DNA of 23,041 nt, taken from positions 43,939-66,979 of the forward strand of contig CAYPEK010000005.1 in NCBI GenBank assembly GCA_964409645.1, read 5' to 3'. The position numbers and the translations under genes were made by a program. The notes beneath the pieces are model-generated. The model was not told the DNA's origin. It did not search any database and saw nothing but the letters and a program-made list of their open reading frames with translations. Numbering within the stretch: the first letter of the stretch is position 1; every line of letters begins with the position of its first letter. Shown here in pieces: positions 3,001 to 21,563 of this stretch. The DNA comes from an uncultured bacterium (GTDB lineage: Bacteria; UBP15; UBA6099).

Positions 3001-5700
3001 GCAACTCAGATTTCCTTCGCATGTTGTCTGATCCGTCACCACGTTGCAGCCGTCCACCGGTACGCAGGATTCGACCATCCACGTGCAAGCGGAATTTGTG
3101 GAGCACGATGCGCTGTCGGAGTAGGCTTCGCATCCGGAGCCGCAATCGGTCGATTGTTCTCCGTTGCAGCAGACTCCGTCGCCCACCGTCAGATCGCAGC
3201 TCACGCACGTGTTATTTGTCTTATCACATGCCATGTAAGCTCCGCACTGATAATTATCCATGCAGTAACCTGCCGGGCATCCTTCATTGTCGGGGATTCC
3301 GGCGACATCCGGACACATATCGCACACATCCGGAAGAAGGTCGTTATCCATGTTCGCGGGTCTCGTGCTGACGCAGACGAAGCCGTTGCAGACGTCGCAG
3401 TACGCGCCGCTTGCATTGCCTACGCATTGTTCGTCAGTGAGGCACTGGACTGAACAGCCGTTGTTATAGGTGGAGCCGGCTTCCGTCGGACACGAGTCGC
3501 AGGAATCCGGGATTCCGTCCGTATCTGCGTCAGTCGGCTCAGTCGCCGCGCACATCCCCGTGCACTCATCATAGATTCCGCTGCAGCAGTCAGCCGGACC
3601 GAGAGCGGGCATCCCCGATTCGATACAGGCACAGTCGTTCGCGCACCAGCCGGCCGATTCGCCCGCCTCGCATACGCCGTCGAGGTCGCACATGCAGTCC
3701 TGCGGGCATGTGGCGTTATCTTCGGTCCCTTGGTCGAACCCGCAGAACCCGTCTCCGCAAACCGCGGCGCAGTCATTGCACCAATATTTGCTTTCATTCG
3801 AATCGCAGTAGCCGCTGAAATCGCAAGCGCAGTCGCTCGCGCACGAGAATGTTGTTTCACCGTTGTAATATTCACAAACACTATCGTTGTCGCACGTTGC
3901 AGTCGTCGAAGAAGATTTACACACCATCATCATCAGCGCCGAATCCAGCTCGCAGACGTTTGTCGCATCGCAGCAATCCGCCGCCGTTGCGCATGTTTCA
4001 TAAAGGCCGCTGCACACCGGGCAACCGCCGCTTGCGAGCGTTCCGGGAGCACACGGGCAGCCGTCTTGGCTGTTGATGACCGTGTCCGCGTCGCAGTCGC
4101 CGCTCGCCACCGAGAAGCTGCACCCGTTCGAGCATGTCGTTATAGTGCTGCCGCTACAGTCCACCGTACAACTGTTGACGCTTAATTCATAAGCATCACA
4201 GTAGCCGTCGCCGCACTTGCAGTCCGCCGGACAGCTCTGTGCTGTTTCCATATAATCACAAACTCCGTTGCTGTTGCATTCGCCCGAAACAGGTTCGCAG
4301 ACACCTGATACTGAGTTACAGAATGACGAAACAGTCTGGCTGCATTCGCTGGTGCTTGTGCAGGCACAGCCGAACGCCTTCGGGGCTATCGAGCATTCAT
4401 CCCTTACCGGACAAGTCTTTGTTGCCAAGTCGAGCGCGCTGCCATCGTAGCAGATACACCCGCCGGCGTCGTAGTCCGGATAGGAGTCCGCGGGGCAGGT
4501 ACAGTAGGAATTACTGTACGTATCCGGAGACATCCCAGCCGGGCAGGCCGCCGTGCATTCGCCTGTCAGCGGATTGATGTAAGGAGTCGCCGCGCCACAG
4601 ACACATGTGCCGGTGGTGTCCGGCACCATGCCCGTCGGACAGCCGTTCGAGCATGCGCCGCTGTCCGGGTCGAGATAAGTGCCTGTCGGGCACACGCAGG
4701 TCTTAGTTTCAGTATTAGCAACACGCGGCGACGGGCATGCCGTCACGCACGAGCCGTAAAATTCATCGAGGAAATATCCGGTGGGGCACGAAGTTGCGGC
4801 CGCCGGGCAGAAGTTATTCTGCGCCGAGCCGTACATGCAGGGGCATTCGTCCGCCGTGTTCGCCGCGCCGTCCGAATCGCAGTCCGTTTTCGTTGTGCTC
4901 AACAGATCGCAGCCTTCGGCATCCGTACCGGCCGGGCAGAGCTTCTGCGCCACTCCGGTATCGCTTACCTGAACACCGGTCTGGTTGACGCACGGTTCCG
5001 TTCCGTTCGCGACTTCAACCGAGTTCGTGATTCCGTCCGCGTCGCAGTCGCCGCTGCCTACCATGTAGTCGCAGCCCGCGCCCGCCGTGCCGGACGGACA
5101 AATTGTTGTGGATACCGTGGAAACGCATTTCTTTGCGTAGAAATCGAGATACATCGATGTCGCGCCCGAGGGGCACACGCAGAGGCCGTCTATCGCGTCG
5201 CCTACCTGACCGCCCGAGCATGTCGCCACGCATTTGCTCTGAAGTTCGTCGTAGTACGGCGTGCTCGCCGGGTTGCATATACATGAGTTAGTTGCGGTGT
5301 CAACTATGAATCCGTTCGCTGTCGGACATGAAGCTACCGACACGCAGTAATCTTCCGGCCCGAGAATCGTTCCGTTCGGGCAGTAACACGTACCGGTCGT
5401 GGTGTCCGCAACCTGTCCGCCCGTGCACGTATCCACGCACGCGCCGACCGCTTCGTCGAACACCTTTCCGCCGCATCTCGTATATGCCGGCATCTCGCAC
5501 ACCATCAGCGTCGAGTTCCACACCGTGCCGGAGGGGCACATGCATGTGCCGTCGGAGGCTTTCACCTGACCGCCGATACACGTTGTGGTCGCCGTCGTCG
5601 ATGTAACCTGCGTATAGAATGAAGAACACTTGCTTGTCGCAGCGTTCCAGTAGCAGTTCGTGTCCGTTTCGCAAGTTGTCTTGGTTGTAAGTGTTACGCA
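1..5700 (-). repeat. Array of diverged cysteine-rich protein repeats (unrecognised family) forming the bulk of the giant protein; continues beyond the window
   Basis: Recurrent roughly 40-45 aa modules of the form C-x-x-Y-x-D-x-x-x-C-x(5-9)-C-x-W-x(6-8)-C, e.g. CSAYTDQASCNNNSSCYYDGVSGC, CTGYTDETSCTTDSNCTWLTEYSAC, CSSYSDETSCIGGTTCIWSGSISAC. These are interleaved with a second module, CTSGGTCC-x-P-x-x-C-x-DNGYG-x-x-SC...C-P-x-DCC, that recurs three times, centred near nt 2435, 1610 and 1070. DNA copies are only about 70% identical, so these are old protein-level repeats, not recent duplications. Confidence 0.75.
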
Positions 5701-8211
5701 GCTTGACGGCTTGCTTGCCGCGTTCAGCGGATCGTAAACCGACTCGACTTCGTACTTATCGGTGAACCCGTCGCCGTCGGTGTCTTTATTATAAGGATTA
5801 GTTCCTATCGCCAATTCCTGAGAGTTCGAAAGTCCGTCCGAGTCGCAGTCGCCGGAGGGATTCGCCACCGCGTCGCACTTAGCCGCGCAGGCCGGGTCTG
5901 ACTTCGTGATCGTCACCGCGCTGTTGAACGCGTTGCAGTCCACGCCGTTCAGAACGAGGTCGCCGTCGCAGTCCGCGTATGGATCGGAGTTGTTGCAGCC
6001 GCAAAGCGTGTCTTCGTCCACCTTGCCGTCGCCGTCGTTGTCGATCCCGTCCTGAGATTCCTCGTCAGCCTTACCGTCGCGGTCGTTGTCCTTTGCGTCT
6101 CCGCAAACCATGTTGACGAGCACGCACGAACCGGCGGTCGAGCCGGCCGTTGTGTAAACCCACTGGCAACCCACGGACGCGAAGCACGTGTCCTTAGTCG
6201 TCAGCGCCGAGCATCCCGTCGCGGTTGACATGTTGGCGGGCGCGTCCTCGTCGATCAGACCGTCGAAGTCGTTGTCGATCCCGTCTATGGGGTCTTCGCC
6301 GATACGGCCGTCGCAGTCGTTGTCGATCCCGTCGCCCGGCGTCATTGTCGTTATCGACGGAATGCACGAGAAGCTGTTGATGATAACCGAAGCCACGGCG
6401 CTCTTGCCGCCGGGGATGTCCGCTTCAACCGTGAGCGGATTCTTCGGTCCTGTCTGAATCTGCATTTCCGCCTGAGCGTAATACTTACCGTCGCTCGCCG
6501 CGCCGGAGAGTCCGGTGATCGGCATCAGCGTCGAGTTACCATAAAGCGTTCCGGCGTCATCGTGGAAATTCACGAGCAAAGCGCCCGAGAACGCACTTGC
6601 CGATTTAACAACCACTCTCGCCTTGACCCCCGTCAGCCCGTTCTGCCACACGCGGGTCGGCGTGAGCGTCAGGCTCACATCCTCGATCACGAGTCCGAGC
6701 GCCGCGGCGTCCGTCGTCGCGCCCGAGTTCACTATCACTCTCGTTTCCTGCCCATACTGATCTTTCGCTACAAATTCGATCGATTTCGTGCAGTCTTTGA
6801 GGAACAATCCCACTCTCTCGAACATACCGTTGTCGAATTTCAATTGGGAATCGTTCAGAAGATTCGTTCCGTCCATTATCAACGACGCGCCCGGCGTAAC
6901 CGTTCCCGAAATGTTGACGTACGGGCAAGCCGTGAAACCTTCCGACGGGCTGTTGATCGTGAGTTCCGGCGGCCCTACCACATCGAGACTCACCGTCTGC
7001 GCCGCCGAGCATTCGATATTCTGCGCCGAGCACTCAACCGGAATGCTCAGTTCGCCCGCCGCGCCGAACGATACCTCGCCCGAGAACGAACCGCTTGCGT
7101 TCGCCTGAACCGTGGCATCGCCGATCTTGCATGTCGCGCCGGGAACTGTCGTTCCTTCAACCACCACCGAAGCGGCCGAAAGCGCAATCTCCGTAACATC
7201 CGGTTTGCTTATCGATACTTTACATTCTATTTCCGTTGTGCCGGTGGCCGTCTCCACCTTGGCCGTCGCGGTCGCGGTTCCGGTTGTTGTGTCAACCGTC
7301 GCCGTGCCTGTTGCCGATTCGACCTTGTCGAGCGGCTTGCCCACGCAGCGTCCGTTTGCTCCGCAGTCCTGACTGCAACATTCCGAGTTAGCGGCGCACG
7401 CGTCACCGTTCGGGATGCACGCCGTCGCCACCGCCTGCACTGTGCAAACGTTGTCCACGCAACTCTTCGAACAGCACTGCCCGTTGTTCTCGCAGGCCTG
7501 CGATGCCGGAAGGCAGGCGCCGCTCTTGAGCGCGTTGCTCTCGCCGGCGCACTGGCCGTTGTCGCACCTGCCGGACGCGCAGTCGTTATTGTCGTCGCAT
7601 TTATCTATTTCTTCATTAGTGACTTTTTTGGGCGGAGCCGGCGGCTGGCCTGAGTTGACCGATACCTGCTCGCCTCCCGTCGCCGTCACCGTCTGGCCCT
7701 GCGACGTTACGTCCATGATGCCGTCACGCACCGTTACGTTAGTTGTGTTCTCGGGAGTGTTCTCGATATCGCCTTCCGTTCCGCGAACACCGGCGACCGC
7801 CGTAGGGGTCGTAACCTTGAACGATGAATTCGGGTTCTGAAGCTTTTCCGCTTTCAGCTTTACTTTCCCCGAAAACAGATCGACATCCGTCTTCACCGTT
7901 TTAGTCTTCGGATCGATGTCGATGTTCTTCACCACGAAATTGGTGAACGGCGTGAGCTTGATTGTGTTCTGTGAGCTCCATTTGACAACCGCGGATGATT
8001 TCGCGCCCGTCTTAACGGCTGTGCCGTTAGGCAACAGCATATTATCTTTTGCCGCTTGCCAACTCCCTCCCGGCAGCATGACCTGAACGTCGCCGCTGAT
8101 AGCGGTCAGGGTCGCGCTGACGGGGATGGCGCGCAGCTTCACGGGGACTATCACTGCAATGGCAATAAGTACCATTGCAAGCAAAACCCATTTCATGCGC
8201 TTTTTACACAT
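1..8211 (-). CDS. Giant secreted cysteine-rich modular repeat protein, 5' portion only (at least 2,737 aa in window; C-terminus lies beyond the window start). Order of parts: signal peptide, FecR-like domain, CC-containing Cys-knot-like modules, Thr/Gly-rich beta-rich (Ig-like?) region, thrombospondin-type-3-like Ca-binding repeats, long array of Cys-rich repeats of unrecognised type.
   Basis: Reading the minus strand in the frame whose codons end at positions divisible by 3: ATG at 8211 (revcomp of cat 8209-8211) is preceded by GGGAGGG 5 nt upstream (revcomp of 8217-8223), with an in-frame stop just upstream at 8227-8229. A second in-frame ATG lies at 8196. The N-terminus reads MCKKRMKWVLLAMVLIAIAVIVPVKLRA, a charged n-region followed by a hydrophobic core, i.e. 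a signal peptide. I translated the whole frame by hand from 8211 down to position 1 and met no stop. This agrees with the ORF track, which shows no minus-strand ORF in that frame anywhere in 1..8211; the track demonstrably omits ORFs that run off the window edge. Hand-checked segments, e.g. nt 1-120, give ...KLASCSEYIIEYACGADVACTWTGTSCTDMGTSCSGYTDQ. Codon third positions are G/C-rich like the neighbouring genes. The high density of gca/aca triplets on the plus strand is the reverse complement of tgc/tgt Cys codons. Confidence 0.85.
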   Translation of the reverse strand, partial: MCKKRMKWVLLAMVLIAIAVIVPVKLRAIPVSATLTAISGDVQVMLPGGSWQAAKDNMLLPNGTAVKTGAKSSAVVKWSSQNTIKLTPFTNFVVKNIDIDPKTKTVKTDVDLFSGKVKLKAEKLQNPNSSFKVTTPTAVAGVRGTEGDIENTPENTTNVTVRDGIMDVTSQGQTVTATGGEQVSVNSGQPPAPPKKVTNEEIDKCDDNNDCASGRCDNGQCAGESNALKSGACLPASQACENNGQCCSKSCVDNVCTVQAVATACIPNGDACAANSECCSQDCGANGRCVGKPLDKVESATGTATVDTTTGTATATAKVETATGTTEIECKVSISKPDVTEIALSAASVVVEGTTVPGATCKIGDATVQANASGSFSGEVSFGAAGELSIPVECSAQNIECSAAQTVSLDVVGPPELTINSPSEGFTACPYVNISGTVTPGASLIMDGTNLLNDSQLKFDNGMFERVGLFLKDCTKSIEFVAKDQYGQETRVIVNSGATTDAAALGLVIEDVSLTLTPTRVWQNGLTGVKARVVVKSASAFSGALLVNFHDDAGTLYGNSTLMPITGLSGAASDGKYYAQAEMQIQTGPKNPLTVEADIPGGKSAVASVIINSFSCIPSITTMTPGDGIDNDCDGRIGEDPIDGIDNDFDGLIDEDAPANMSTATGCSALTTKDTCFASVGCQWVYTTAGSTAGSCVLVNMVCGDAKDNDRDGKADEESQDGIDNDGDGKVDEDTLCGCNNSDPYADCDGDLVLNGVDCNAFNSAVTITKSDPACAAKCDAVANPSGDCDSDGLSNSQELAIGTNPYNKDTDGDGFTDKYEVESVYDPLNAASKPSSCVTLTTKTTCETDTNCYWNAATSKCSSFYTQVTSTTATTTCIGGQVKASDGTCMCPSGTVWNSTLMVCEMPAYTRCGGKVFDEAVGACVDTCTGGQVADTTTGTCYCPNGTILGPEDYCVSVASCPTANGFIVDTATNSCICNPASTPYYDELQSKCVATCSGGQVGDAIDGLCVCPSGATSMYLDFYAKKCVSTVSTTICPSGTAGAGCDYMVGSGDCDADGITNSVEVANGTEPCVNQTGVQVSDTGVAQKLCPAGTDAEGCDLLSTTKTDCDSDGAANTADECPCMYGSAQNNFCPAAATSCPTGYFLDEFYGSCVTACPSPRVANTETKTCVCPTGTYLDPDSGACSNGCPTGMVPDTTGTCVCGAATPYINPLTGECTAACPAGMSPDTYSNSYCTCPADSYPDYDAGGCICYDGSALDLATKTCPVRDECSIAPKAFGCACTSTSECSQTVSSFCNSVSGVCEPVSGECNSNGVCDYMETAQSCPADCKCGDGYCDAYELSVNSCTVDCSGSTITTCSNGCSFSVASGDCDADTVINSQDGCPCAPGTLASGGCPVCSGLYETCATAADCCDATNVCELDSALMMMVCKSSSTTATCDNDSVCEYYNGETTFSCASDCACDFSGYCDSNESKYWCNDCAAVCGDGFCGFDQGTEDNATCPQDCMCDLDGVCEAGESAGWCANDCACIESGMPALGPADCCSGIYDECTGMCAATEPTDADTDGIPDSCDSCPTEAGSTYNNGCSVQCLTDEQCVGNASGAYCDVCNGFVCVSTRPANMDNDLLPDVCDMCPDVAGIPDNEGCPAGYCMDNYQCGAYMACDKTNNTCVSCDLTVGDGVCCNGEQSTDCGSGCEAYSDSASCSTNSACTWMVESCVPVDGCNVVTDQTTCEGNLSCVWDTTYGLCFTNNGTCVPAGQGCVPGGTVGCCNGVCTETTSGYVCANEVLCESVTDQSTCQVSFNCGWNYTAGNCYTNYGDCQLIHANESDCLNDMMERCEWDATNSYCHFTQAGICSQHMDEATCGADTNCQWDYTYTYCGVAQSVVDCSMATDEAMCTSYGCTWSTETSTCSTGSCLSLGTDCTSGGTCCYPYSCVDNGYGVSSCVESTFCGDAACNGGETTMYCPMDCCPSLADEATCSSDVYCSWDTGNSQCVAGGAIGCSAYTDQASCNNNSSCYYDGVSGCMEFYDSANCGFFSGDSNWCTIHGTYCTWDGTSCYAGGPQCTGYTDETSCTTDSNCTWLTEYSACVVSSSGCSAYANQTECNGNSGCVWESTYCTEFTGEAQCMYFDETNCSSLHGGYCTFTTYCVGINAAACQVITNETDCVNAAGTYGCTWNGTSCDVGGVACITYGADCTSGGTCCSPFVCLDNGYGVSSCTDATVCGDTVCSGTETTITCPSDCCLSYPDETSCSSDVYCSWNGTESKCYAGGSLTSCTNYVDQVACNADVACVWESTWCEGLYNEAQCMYFDQTACGTHSICTYNGTECLGVSAAFCASILNEVDCTANNVSYGCVWDSGLSTCNVGTACLAYGVDCMSGGSCCDPYVCMNDGFGNYSCMNQPTCGNTSCEPGESTMYCPLDCCQNYTDETTCTSDSYCAWDSGYSLCVMNGGSGCGSITDQASCNTYSASCYWNTDYSTCQEFTDAVSQCSYLSADTMWCNMHGAFCTFNGTDCVSLTGGCISYTDQATCEADANCNWNALSTQCDQDLADCTGYIYETSCNTDTECTWNGTSCEAIGVSTCASYMDQTTCMNDATCTWTGAFCVMTNACTSYAETGCVSDPTCWWDQTNAYCELCPISPPYPIGCACTSGTECNSGICGSGNLCEMSAASCSSYSDETSCIGGTTCIWSGSISACFDKLASCSEYIIEYACGADVACTWTGTSCTDMGTSCSGYTDQ
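5740..6345 (-). repeat. Thrombospondin-type-3-like Asp-rich calcium-binding repeats within the giant protein
   Basis: Translated motifs DGIDNDCDGRIGEDPIDGIDNDFDGLIDEDA, DNDRDGKADEESQDGIDNDGDGKVDEDTLC and GDCDSDGLSNSQELAIGTNPYNKDTDGDGFTDKYEVE. The D-x-D-x-D-G-x-x-D-x-x-D pattern is typical of TSP3 and OmpA-associated Ca-binding repeats. It shows on the plus strand as repeated gtcgccgtcgttgtcgatcccgtc-type runs. Confidence 0.65.
7642..8127 (-). other. FecR-like beta domain at the N-terminus of the giant protein
   Basis: Translated segment ...TAVKTGAKSSAVVKWSSQNTIKLTPFTNFVVKNIDIDPKTKTVKTDVDLFSGKVKLKAEKLQNPNSSFKVTTPTAVAGVRGTEGDIENTPENTTNVTVRDGIMDVTSQGQTVTATGGEQVSV. The alternating beta pattern with a central V-x-G-V-R-GT-E/F and a following V-x-V-x-x-G motif is what I recall of the FecR domain family (PF04773). 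Assignment is from memory, not from a search. Confidence 0.5.
8128..8211 (-). other. Predicted Sec signal peptide of the giant protein
   Basis: MCKKRMKWVLLAMVLIAIAVIVPVKLRA: basic n-region (KKRMK), about 18-residue hydrophobic h-region, A-x-A-like c-region (LRA). Exact cleavage site not determined. Confidence 0.6.
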
Positions 8212-8470
8212 AAATTCCCTCCCGATTTAATAAGGTTGTTTTTAGACAATGAAAAAATAATAATGCTGATACTATATTTGTTATTTTGAAGTTTATTCAA
8301 CATTATCACACAATCAAATCGAACATTACAATATATTTTACCACATAACAAGGTTTATGTGAAGTCCCTTTTTTTTCAGCCATTTATGGAACTTTTTTCC
8401 CTCCTTGCATGTCATAAATAAAAGGACATAAAAGTACGTCTTTAGTTTACCTATGATTTTATTGCTTGTC

Positions 8471-8510
8471 TGTGACCGGAGTCACTTTTTGGAGTGTGAT
8501 TATGGTCACG
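8471..8510. promoter_or_regulatory. Two tandem CRP-type operator boxes (TGTGA-N6-TCAC), 260-285 bp upstream of the giant gene start and about 20-60 bp past the stop of the Crp-family gene
   Basis: 8471-8486 is TGTGAccggagTCACt and 8495-8510 is TGTGAttatggTCACg. Each matches 9/10 of the E. coli CRP half-site pair TGTGA-N6-TCACA. Centres are 24 bp apart. The first box is followed by a T5 run. Confidence 0.45.
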
Positions 8511-8530
8511 CCCGGCTCCGAAAAAACGTT

Positions 8531-9214
8531 TCAATACACCCTGTTTTTCAGACCGATCGTGTTTGTTATGACAAATGTGTTCTTTCTGATTCTTATATAT
8601 CCCATCGTTTCGAGCGTTTTCAGCGCCCGCGTCAGAGTCTCACGTGTCGTCCCGACGAGATTCGCCAATTCTGTCCGGCTGTGCGCCACGCTGATTTCGA
8701 TTCCCGCGTCCACTTCGCGGCCGCCCTCGACCGCCATATCGAGCAGGATTCTCGCCAGCCGTCCGCACACGTCAAGAAACACCAGACTTTCGATGTGCTC
8801 GTTGGCGTTCCTCAGCCTGCGGCCCAGAACCGCGATCACTTTTTTCGCCATTTCCGGATTGGATGTGAACAGCTTTAGAAAATCGTCCCGCCTTAAAACA
8901 AGCACTTCCGTCTTATCTATCGCCACCACCGAGGCCGATCTCGGCTCCCCGTCCAGCAGCGCCAGCTCTCCGAAAAATTCCGTCGGCTGCAATATACCGA
9001 CTATGAATTCCTTGCCCTCGTCATCCGTCAGAACAACTTTCACGCGACCGCTGATCAGTGAGAAAAACGTGTCGCCCTCATCCTGCTTGTGTATTATTGT
9101 CTCATTTTTATCATATTCCCTGACAAACGCCAGTTTGCCGAAACTGTCCAGTTCCTTGTCAGTCAGGCTCGAAAACAACGGCACTTTCTTCAATGCTTCT
9201 TTCACTGATATCAT
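8531..9214 (-). CDS. Crp/Fnr-family transcriptional regulator (cNMP-binding domain plus C-terminal HTH), 227 aa
   Basis: Complete ORF in the track. The N-terminal beta-roll cNMP-binding-like region reads ...FFGELALLDGEPRSASVVAIDKTEVLVLRRDDF. The C-terminal HTH reads SRTELANLVGTTRETLTRALKTLETMGYI. GGAGG lies upstream of the ATG at 9214 (revcomp of 9222-9228). There is no N-terminal Cys cluster, so it is not FNR-type. Confidence 0.9.
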   Translation of the reverse strand: MISVKEALKKVPLFSSLTDKELDSFGKLAFVREYDKNETIIHKQDEGDTFFSLISGRVKVVLTDDEGKEFIVGILQPTEFFGELALLDGEPRSASVVAIDKTEVLVLRRDDFLKLFTSNPEMAKKVIAVLGRRLRNANEHIESLVFLDVCGRLARILLDMAVEGGREVDAGIEISVAHSRTELANLVGTTRETLTRALKTLETMGYIRIRKNTFVITNTIGLKNRVY

Positions 9215-9365
9215 CTGTCGCCTCCGAAAGCCCTATTTGCTGAATCTTCGGCCTTCGCTCACACAAAAAAGGCCCGCCGTTAACGCGCAGGCTGGTTGTT
9301 TCTATCCTATCTTGACAACAATAGGGCTCTCCGAAATCATCAGGTTTTGCCTCTAAACAGATGCT

Positions 9366-9400
9366 ATTATAATTCATTTTTCAAAAAAATGAAATGGTTT
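9366..9400 (-). promoter_or_regulatory. Candidate sigma-70-type promoter for the crp-family gene
   Basis: The minus strand reads TTCATT-(16 nt)-TATAAT (the -10 is the revcomp of plus 9366-9371). This would give a 5' UTR of about 145 nt. Confidence 0.25.
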
Positions 9401-9580
9401 TAATTTAACACAAGTTCTCATAATATTCCGGCCGCAACGGTTTGAAGCGGATGAAATCCCATGCAAAAGTCGTATATTATGGCCTTGCCCCTGCTTTATA
9501 TGAGAAAAGTGGCCGATAATGAAGCAGTTCGCCGCTATGAGCATCGCCCCGGATTCAGATATTCATCCGCTAATCCGGTT

Positions 9581-20302: not shown

Positions 20303-20782
20303 TTATGCGACGTCTCTTTTTTCCTCGGAGTCGCGAAGCGATACACATATTTCTATCCTGTGCTCGCCAAGAAACATCGGAACCACAAGCGATTTGGAAC
20401 AGTTAAGTAACGACAACTCGGAGCCGTCTATAACATAAGGCGGCGTAATTTCACTCATAAAACCTTCCTCCGATAAACCCGTCATCGCATTCGAGACCAA
20501 GATGTCGGTCAATTCCGCCACTGCGCTCTTCCCAAGCTCATCGAGCCCGTTATTCTCTCCGACCATCTTGACGGCGATGCTTTCCGCGCAAGCATTCGAC
20601 ATCGACATCACAACCTGTCCGTTCAGACGGCCGGTGACGCCGATTACCACAGCAAACTCTCCTGTTGTCCTGAATAATCTATTCTTTAAATAATACCGTC
20701 CTATGGTCGGTTTCTCGCCAACCATTTCCCCGAATATTTTCGTAATAGACTCGTTGAAGTAATTCAGCTGCTCGACCTTCAT
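20303..20782 (-). CDS. cheX: CheX-family (CheC/CheX/FliY-like) chemotaxis phosphatase paralogue 1, about 160 aa
   Basis: The track ORF 20303..20833 starts MYTLRIVFRAKKREGQQMKVEQ. I prefer the internal ATG at 20782 (MKVEQLNYFNESITKIFGEMVGEKP...), which has GGGAGGGG about 6 nt upstream and the canonical CheX N-terminus. The stretch VVIGVTGRLNGQVVMSMS plus the ITPPYVIDG and VVPMFLGEHRIEI motifs match CheX. The putative catalytic pair reads AELTD (E-x2-D), not the E-x2-N of CheX2. Confidence 0.75.
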   Translation of the reverse strand: MKVEQLNYFNESITKIFGEMVGEKPTIGRYYLKNRLFRTTGEFAVVIGVTGRLNGQVVMSMSNACAESIAVKMVGENNGLDELGKSAVAELTDILVSNAMTGLSEEGFMSEITPPYVIDGSELSLLNCSKSLVVPMFLGEHRIEICVSLRDSEEKRDVA

Positions 20783-21086
20783 TTGCTGCCCCTCCCGTTT
20801 TTTTGCACGGAAAACTATCCGCAGGGTGTACAACTTTCCCGGCGTAACTTTTCCGGCTCCCTCTCTTTTTGTGCTTCCAACTGGTTAGACGTCGATTTTG
20901 GCTGTTTTCCGGTAATTTTTTTAAAATTATTTTTTGTTTGTGAAAAGCAACTCTGTACTTGCCCATTGTCAATTCAAGGCTCGCCGGACAGCAACACAAT
21001 GCCGCATGGCAACAAATTTGTCCAAAACAGCATTTCTATAGTTGAATTTTGCTAATTGAAAACAAATTGTCGCTGCCGACGGCCTG

Positions 21087-21563
21087 TTAAGCCGCCGTTT
21101 CGGCAAGCGTGAGGTTAACTTCCAGAGTTCCCGCGCCCATGTTCAGAGGAATCACCACCGTTCGGGAATTTGGCGGCCCCGTGATCGCCATCCCCGAGCC
21201 GGTAAAAACATGCGGCGGGGTTATATCGCACGTGTAACCGGCCTCCGCAAGTCCGATAGTCGCATTCGCCGCGATCATATTCGACATCTCCGCCAATGCA
21301 CTCTGTGCCACCTCATCGAACGCGTACACCTTCGGCTCCATCATCATCGCAGCCGCGATGTTCTTTGCGGATTCCTCGGAAAGCGTGATCACCATGTGCC
21401 CCGAAAGATGCCCCGTCACGCCCACAACCACCGCCACGTCATTCGATTCGTACGTAAGATGATCTCTCAAAAAAACCTTTCCCATCGCAGGTTTTTCAGA
21501 AATCGACTCCTCGACGATCTTGACCACGGACTTTATGAACGGATTGAGATATTCAACTTTCAT
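21087..21563 (-). CDS. cheX: CheX-family chemotaxis phosphatase paralogue 2, 158 aa
   Basis: MKVEYLNPFIKSVVKIVEESISEKPAMGKVFLRD...VVVGVTGHLSGHMVITLSEESAKNIAAAMM...LAEMSNMIAANATIGLAEAGYTCDITPPHVFTG...VVIPLNMGAGTLEVNLTL is a near-textbook CheX, with the E-x2-N motif present. GGAG lies upstream of the ATG. Confidence 0.82.
   Translation of the reverse strand: MKVEYLNPFIKSVVKIVEESISEKPAMGKVFLRDHLTYESNDVAVVVGVTGHLSGHMVITLSEESAKNIAAAMMMEPKVYAFDEVAQSALAEMSNMIAANATIGLAEAGYTCDITPPHVFTGSGMAITGPPNSRTVVIPLNMGAGTLEVNLTLAETAA

Follow-up and report, generated by a model that had tools for sequence, protein, structure and literature searches.

This analysis concerns a 23,041-nucleotide stretch of contig CAYPEK010000005.1 from an uncultured bacterium (GenBank assembly GCA_964409645.1; GTDB lineage UBP15, UBA6099), referred to below as the window, and specifically a crp-family regulator gene and the giant gene that follows it. 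As judged from sequence, the regulator gene, the CRP-type boxes behind it and the giant gene are a unit that is conserved across an uncultivated lineage. Their conservation as a unit makes it very probable that the regulator acts as the switch of one giant-gene promoter. The features of the unit in the window are as follows.

8531-9214, minus strand: crp-family regulator gene, encoding 227 amino acids (aa) with an N-terminal domain for binding cyclic nucleoside monophosphates (cNMP) and a C-terminal Crp-type helix-turn-helix.
8510-8495, minus-strand reading: box 1, predicted promoter-distal CRP-type operator, cGTGAccataaTCACA, 9/10 of the consensus; putative centre at ~-65.5 relative to P1.
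8486-8471, minus-strand reading: box 2, predicted promoter-proximal CRP-type operator, aGTGActccggTCACA, 9/10 of the consensus; putative centre at ~-41.5 relative to P1.
8449-8444, minus strand: putative -10 hexamer of promoter P1, TAAACT, at a fixed 21-nt offset; predicted start ~8437.
8363-8335, minus strand: promoter P2, near-consensus sigma-70 type, TTCACA, 17 nt, TGgTAAAAT; predicted start ~8328.
8223-8217, minus strand: ribosome-binding site of the giant gene, GGGAGGG, as read from the sequence.
8211-1, minus strand: 5' part of the giant gene (2736 of 3355 codons), beginning with ATG at 8211 and running off the end of the window.

The preliminary description of this DNA had placed crp and the giant gene in the same direction around an AT-rich spacer of ~320 bp, with tandem boxes at 8471-8486 and 8495-8510 that each match 9/10 of the consensus at a centre spacing of 24 bp. 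These coordinates and this description were correct; the spacer (8212-8530) measured 319 bp with 32% GC, and box 1 begins 20 nt past the crp stop. We then compared the boxes with chance expectation. Exact matches to TGTGAN6TCAC in the 23-kb window were confined to the two boxes, against 0.15 expected from shuffled sequence. In 400 simulated windows the mean was 0.46 sites with at most one mismatch, and no window contained a pair. Among 50,000 simulated 319-bp spacers that kept the dinucleotide composition of the real one, a single site with at most one mismatch turned up in 1.3%, and two such sites 16-40 bp apart in none. The pair had been called unlikely to arise by chance, and this was borne out: on the sequence examined, such pairs were not common in AT-rich spacers, the simulations having yielded none.

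Related loci were collected through genome, metagenome and assembly look-ups, with ~10-20 kb around crp examined per genome, and represented 12 distinct lineages in which Crp was 57-100% identical to that of the window. ADurb.Bin236, the one organism of the set that was looked up in the NCBI taxonomy, is placed there in unclassified Bacteria. In all 12 lineages crp was followed by a co-directional and very large open reading frame (ORF) with an N-terminal FecR domain. The complete orthologues of the giant ORF encoded 2095 and 2219 aa, and others exceeded 3000 aa and ran off their contigs. The gene upstream of crp differed by lineage (amidohydrolase, PmbA/TldD, hybrid histidine kinase, ceramidase, glycosyltransferase or thiolase), and the genes past the giant ORF varied likewise. 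Since the outer flanks vary while crp, the spacer and the giant gene persist, what is conserved is the three-part unit.

Boxes of the form GTGA-N6-TCAC were found in the spacers of all 12 lineages, two in nine lineages and one in three. The two-box lineages, with centres 22-24 bp apart, were those of the window and of loci L013, L007/L008, L009, L010/L021/L031, L022, L023, L024 and L032, and the single-box lineages were L012, L025 and L026. Box 2, the promoter-proximal one, was kept in 12/12 lineages, and box 1 stood at the same relative place in the nine tandem-box lineages. The GTGA-N6-TCAC core showed no variation across 19 boxes, and the outermost T/A was retained in 68% of half-sites. Conservation did not extend to the N6 bases, to the 6-8 bp separating the boxes or to most of the other spacer sequence. 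Invariant half-sites amid diverged N6 and flanking bases indicate a protein-binding footprint rather than a conserved hairpin. The base before the right-hand TCAC was always A in box 1 and usually G in box 2, which suggests that each box is under separate selection.

The core motif occurred 21 times in 4.5 kb of crp-giant spacers, compared to 2 matches in the other 156 kb, where ~2.4 would be expected by chance. One of these two, GGTGATAAGACTCACG at 1095-1110 of L026, is intergenic, with a divergent gene for a tetratricopeptide repeat (TPR) protein on one side and a gene for a MoxR-type AAA ATPase on the other; it may be either a chance match or a further target of Crp. The distance from box to giant-gene ATG was 146-266 bp, and that from box to crp stop was 6-429 bp. 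In the lineages with long spacers (L024, L025 and L012) the boxes were still 175-210 bp from the giant ATG. With the distance to the ATG steady and that to the crp stop variable, the boxes belong to the control region of the giant gene and not to the 3' end of crp. The expanded spacers at 4656-5080 of L024 and 10682-10900 of L025 contained tandemly repeated short sequences (GTGCAAAGTGCAAAGTGCATAGTGCATAG; GTAGCCTGTAGCCCGCAGCCCGAAG, twice) together with a strong hairpin, GCAGGACTTCACTGAGAGTGAAGTCCTGC, resembling a crp terminator. These spacer repeats may be repeat-element insertions.

The promoter register was examined in ten lineages anchored on the promoter-proximal box, with offsets of 0-139 nt scanned. 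A hexamer of the form NANNNT was present exactly 21 nt past the proximal box in 9/10 lineages and 22 nt past it in L024. The ten hexamers were TAAACT, TAAACT, AATAAT, CATAAT, TACAAT, TACACT, TAGAAT, TAAAAT, AATATT and AATAAT. No other offset between 0 and 139 nt gave a comparable hexamer signal in these lineages. P1 has no separate -35 element, and box 2 overlaps the -35 position. With a -10-like hexamer 21 nt past box 2 and a start ~7 nt further downstream, box 2 would be centred at -41.5, the class II position. Box 2 is thus predicted to occupy a class II activator position, with box 1 at ~-65.5.

P2 was the best promoter match in the region (10/12, with an extended -10 TG). The extended -10 recurred in most orthologous spacers, 97-132 nt from the box. 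As this distance varies, P2 is not in a fixed operator register, and it is probably Crp independent. Two promoters in tandem probably serve the giant gene, whose 5' leader would exceed 100 nt. With P2 placed downstream of the boxes and ahead of the giant gene, only one of the two promoters is probably under Crp control. Two other assignments were tried and rejected: P2 as the primary Crp-dependent promoter was ruled out by the variable box distance, and an alternative -10 from the promoter scan (TAAAAT, 8461-8456), with box 2 as its -35, had no conserved fixed offset. No coding-strand terminator was predicted in the stretch from crp to the giant gene. When 8100-9500 was scanned against Rfam at E<=1, the only match was a chance-level one to sau-63 (E 0.5), with no riboswitch or small RNA in the leader, and no small ORF in the spacer was conserved. 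The regions upstream of crp, searched for an autoregulatory box, were unalignable and contained no core match. A short conserved stretch resembling TCGAAAAAC was observed in the giant-gene leader, just upstream of the ribosome-binding site.

The regulator is, by sequence, a member of the Crp/Fnr family and of its CRP (cNMP-binding) subgroup. Its Pfam matches, PF00027 cNMP_binding (3.4e-27) and PF13545 HTH_Crp_2 (1.1e-15), were both above the gathering scores. The closest solved structures were M. tuberculosis CRP (Rv3676), C. glutamicum GlxR, E. coli CAP and Vfr, which are cyclic AMP (cAMP)-binding CRPs that all read a TGTGA-N6-TCACA-type motif. The best NCBIfam model, enterobacterial CRP NF008732, scored 133 bits against a cut-off of 266, indicating that the regulator belongs to the CRP subgroup and is not an equivalog of the enterobacterial global CRP. 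A tblastn search of plasmids with Crp gave matches of <=35% identity only. Pairwise alignment with E. coli CRP, whose known residue numbering the alignment reproduced, gave 35% identity and the following correspondences.

Phosphate-binding cassette: E. coli G71 and E72 correspond to G82 and E83 here.
Phosphate-binding cassette: E. coli R82 and S83 correspond to R92 and S93 here.
DNA contacts that read TGTGA: E. coli R180, E181 and R185 correspond to R191, E192 and R196 (RETLTR) here.
Adenine contacts: E. coli T127 and S128 correspond to A137 and N138 here.
Acidic loop, residues 52-58 (AR3): E. coli KDEEGKE corresponds to TDDEGKE here.
AR1 loop (contact to the alpha C-terminal domain): divergent here.
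AR2 positive patch: E. coli H19, H21 and K101 correspond to F30, R32 and D111 here.

The roles that we take AR1, AR2 and AR3 to have come in part from the summary in PMC2844151. The acidic 52-58 loop corresponds to activating region 3 (AR3). The cassette FFGE..LLDGEPRSA was invariant across clade orthologues, with G82, E83, R92 and S93 fixed in 13 orthologues, and the recognition helix GTTRETLTRALKTL (RETLTR; R191, E192 and R196) was invariant in every clade orthologue. A cyclic nucleotide is well supported as the effector; cAMP in particular is not so supported, though it is the most likely candidate.

The product of the giant gene is 3355 aa long on a 77.7-kb contig that encodes an identical Crp; for L001 and the window, Crp was identical and the giant-gene translations were not. 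Close orthologues retained a G-rich Shine-Dalgarno sequence and a ATGTGTAAAA start. At its N-terminus the protein carries a signal peptide or anchor, MCKKRMKWVLLAMVLIAIAVIVPVKLRA, and the FecR domain comes next. Its N-terminal 200 aa matched the Leptospira proteins Lsa33 (3.6e-21), LipL45 (4.3e-10) and Lsa19 (4.5e-07), all with scores far below the family cut-offs. The target resembles these adhesins in that FecR-domain match and differs from them in that the domain here heads a 3355-aa protein with ~11% cysteine. The rest of the protein consists of TSP3 repeats and long acidic cysteine-rich repeats with 10-11% cysteine. The giant proteins of the window, L023 (10897-17184) and L024 (5334-11993) are also rich in Asp, Thr and Ser and carry degenerate repeats of ~40 aa of the C-x-W-x-C type. 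The giant orthologues of L023 and L024 gave weak, sub-threshold matches to a LapA-type retention module, and no C-terminal sorting signal or anchor was recognisable in the two complete orthologues. The sequence is most reasonably read as that of a surface fibre or adhesin tethered at its N-terminus. A homologue search with the giant N-terminus returned short FecR fragments only, and a literature search on giant cysteine-rich adhesins with FecR domains found nothing. An aldehyde:ferredoxin oxidoreductase is encoded nearby and the organism appears to be anaerobic, which makes the extracellular cysteine load of the giant protein unusual.

From the sequence features, their enrichment and conservation, and the conserved DNA- and nucleotide-contact residues, we infer binding by this protein, the positions of the start sites, the sign of the regulation and the nature of the effector. 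In the mechanism that we regard as likely, Crp in its cyclic-nucleotide-bound form occupies both boxes next to its own gene and turns on P1 by a class II route, with P2 giving Crp-independent expression. A regulator homodimer carrying a cyclic nucleotide (with cAMP as the most likely candidate) would bind the two adjacent GTGA-N6-TCAC palindromes. The dimer on the proximal box would stand in place of the -35 element, at ~-41.5 from the weak P1 (TAAACT), and would recruit or activate RNA polymerase by the class II CRP mechanism. A distal dimer 24 bp upstream, beside the proximal one, could stabilise the proximal dimer or tune the response. Transcripts from P1 would run for ~226 nt, through P2, and into the 3355-codon gene for the anchored cysteine-rich surface protein. 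Direct control of the giant gene by its neighbour had already been proposed in the preliminary description, and the footprint, the synteny and the matching contact residues all support that proposal.

The proposed arrangement is similar to class II and class III promoters of E. coli cAMP-CRP (e.g., galP1-type, -41.5) in several respects. The 16-bp TGTGA-N6-TCACA palindrome is shared, the residues equivalent to R180/E181/R185 and to the cassette residues G71/E72/R82/S83 are conserved, the acidic 52-58 loop is retained, and the proximal site, at its predicted position of -41.5, would replace the -35 element. In contrast to the E. coli system, the regulator here is encoded next to its target, is only 35% identical and below the NCBIfam equivalog cut-off, has A/N in place of T127/S128, and is divergent in AR1 and AR2. 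The second site also differs from that of class III promoters, in that it abuts the first at ~-65.5 and is not at a class I position. C. glutamicum GlxR and Pseudomonas Vfr fall in the same CRP subgroup by sequence and read the same type of motif; both are global regulators. Control of surface adhesins, pili and biofilm genes by CRP-family proteins is common. Neither GlxR nor Vfr is known to have a conserved pairing with a giant gene.

Several observations weigh against the class II activation mechanism. Two relatives lack the arrangement: L017 (Crp 83% identical; 949-2306) has neither boxes nor an adjacent giant gene, and in P0010 (Crp 74% identical) crp is followed by genes for NifU and a DEAD-box helicase, again with no adjacent giant gene. 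The ORF downstream of crp in L017 resembles an IS5-type transposase, as judged by eye, and a Pfam-called DDE_Tnp_IS240 transposase gene lies nearby in P0010, which is a protein-level contig only. Both loci look like rearrangements, suggesting that the crp-giant cassette is sometimes broken by mobile elements. The single boxes of L025 and L026, the deepest lineages, lie 33-34 nt from a consensus -10, with the centre at ~-54, which fits neither class. In E. coli the class I positions of CRP are about -61.5, -71.5, -82.5 or -92.5, with room for the alpha C-terminal domain, and the distal box described here (~-63.5 to -65.5, 22-24 bp upstream of the proximal box and abutting it) is not at such a position. 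P2 looks stronger than P1 and sits downstream of it, so control by Crp may be partial. The adenine-contact positions for cAMP are not matched in the regulator (A137/N138 versus T127/S128), and cAMP is therefore not certain as the effector; M. tuberculosis CRP carries T/N at the equivalent positions, according to the structure alignment. Finally, at whiB1 of M. tuberculosis, two dimers bound side by side act as repressors (PMC2844151), and by analogy the same may apply here.

The whiB1 promoter provides the closest precedent for a different outcome from the same parts. Its two CRP sites, at -58.5 and -37.5, abut each other at a spacing of 21 bp and are occupied cooperatively, with activation at low occupancy, repression at high occupancy and the proximal site acting to repress (PMC2844151). 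The same protein and sites could thus produce net repression or a band-pass response at the giant gene, if a single dimer activated and occupancy of both sites at high effector levels excluded the alpha C-terminal domain and shut P1. The likeness is real: M. tuberculosis CRP is the closest solved structure, both systems have two adjacent sites upstream of one promoter, the sites here are directly adjacent as well (22-24 bp between centres, leaving 6-8 bp between the 16-mers), and the distal box is off the class I phasing of E. coli. However, the spacing is 22-24 bp rather than 21 bp, and the proximal site is predicted to lie not at -37.5 but in the activating -41.5 register, in ten lineages. 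M. tuberculosis CRP is a global regulator with ~190 sites (PMC4117774). Three lineages, moreover, have only one box, and the weak -10 of P1 without a -35 is typical of an activator-dependent promoter. We therefore consider repression or band-pass control of this kind unlikely.

It is also conceivable, but improbable, that the boxes, though genuine CRP-family operators, serve a different Crp/Fnr paralogue, or that this Crp is the global CRP of its organism, in which case adjacency would say little. The ~10-20 kb examined per genome leaves room for such a role, as do two Dictyoglomus-like relatives (L027 and L028, Crp 46-48% identical), where synteny is lost and crp is next to dnaA. L028 has a perfect CRP box at 4050-4065 (TGTGATTTTAATCACA), and L027 has a near-perfect or perfect one at 4024-4039. 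These boxes are ~70 bp upstream of a gene for a 682-aa DUF4384/PEGA-domain protein and 6.6 kb from crp, indicating that this Crp family acts at a distance in the Dictyoglomus-like organisms; they also hint that this Crp lineage controlled surface proteins before it was paired with the giant gene. Against a different or global binder, the adjacency of crp, boxes and giant gene persists through >40% protein divergence while the flanks change, the invariant RETLTR helix fits the invariant core, and the remaining core matches in 156 kb are no more than chance. A global role would in any case be compatible with direct control of the giant gene. The suggestion that the palindromes are not protein sites is barely credible. 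As chance matches they have negligible probability (a pair in 0/50,000 simulated spacers; 21 in 4.5 kb versus 2 in 156 kb). As RNA hairpins that terminate or insulate crp transcription they have in their favour that box 2 plus TTTTT was flagged as terminator-like on the plus strand and that the boxes lie just past the crp stop in most loci. However, the run of T residues belongs to the non-coding strand and is missing in other lineages, so box 2 was rejected as a terminator. The stems are also only 5 bp, the half-sites are invariant rather than co-varying, and the boxes track the giant gene when the spacer expands.

The class II activation mechanism, with its CRP boxes and geometry, is textbook CRP biology in its parts and its logic and would hold no surprise for a specialist; the novelty is limited to the target and the lineage. 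It lies in the conserved cassette, which joins a regulator and abutting tandem operators to the gene for a giant cysteine-rich surface protein, and in its occurrence in a lineage without cultured members or an NCBI phylum. A literature search found no paper on a crp-operator-giant cassette. The giant genes of uncultivated bacteria almost never offer clues to their expression, and a conserved operator together with a small-molecule sensor gives one. The regulator could be purified, the operator could be tested in E. coli, and metatranscriptomes could be read for the predicted starts at ~8437 and ~8328. The natural series of tandem sites, with spacings of 22, 23 and 24 bp, and of single-site variants would also be useful for studying abutting CRP dimers, a question so far addressed mainly at whiB1 of M. 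tuberculosis.

A more speculative extension, which we regard as doubtful but worth stating, is that the locus is a self-contained and vertically inherited sensor-to-surface cassette and the hallmark of an entire unclassified bacterial lineage. A dedicated rather than global Crp paralogue, possibly responding to a nucleotide other than cAMP in view of A137/N138 at the base-contact positions, and its abutting operators would then form a sharpened or band-pass switch for an anchored surface fibre of 3355 aa and 11% cysteine, used for instance by members of anaerobic consortia to change between an attached and a free-living state. Two adjacent genes for CheX/CheC-like chemotaxis phosphatases were observed at 20303-21563 on the minus strand of the window, and the related locus L026 encodes flagellin. 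These genes make motility of the lineage probable, in keeping with a regulated decision to attach or swim.

Two further observations are peripheral to the unit. For ADurb.Bin236 (locus L008), a non-canonical SepRS with a fused ThrRS editing domain has been reported, along with SepCysS (PMC5424206); that report is unrelated to the crp-giant unit and marks the lineage as unusual. On the minus strand at 9255-9375, between the amidohydrolase gene and crp, a TATAAT (9371-9366) is followed by ~95 nt and then by an intrinsic terminator (GCCTGCGCGTTAACGGCGGGC plus TTTTTT, ~9291-9265) that lies ~50 nt before the crp start. This leader is absent from orthologous loci, and beyond the terminator its fold was no better than that of shuffled sequences (z -0.2). 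The element could be a small RNA, an attenuating leader of crp or a distant terminator of the upstream gene.

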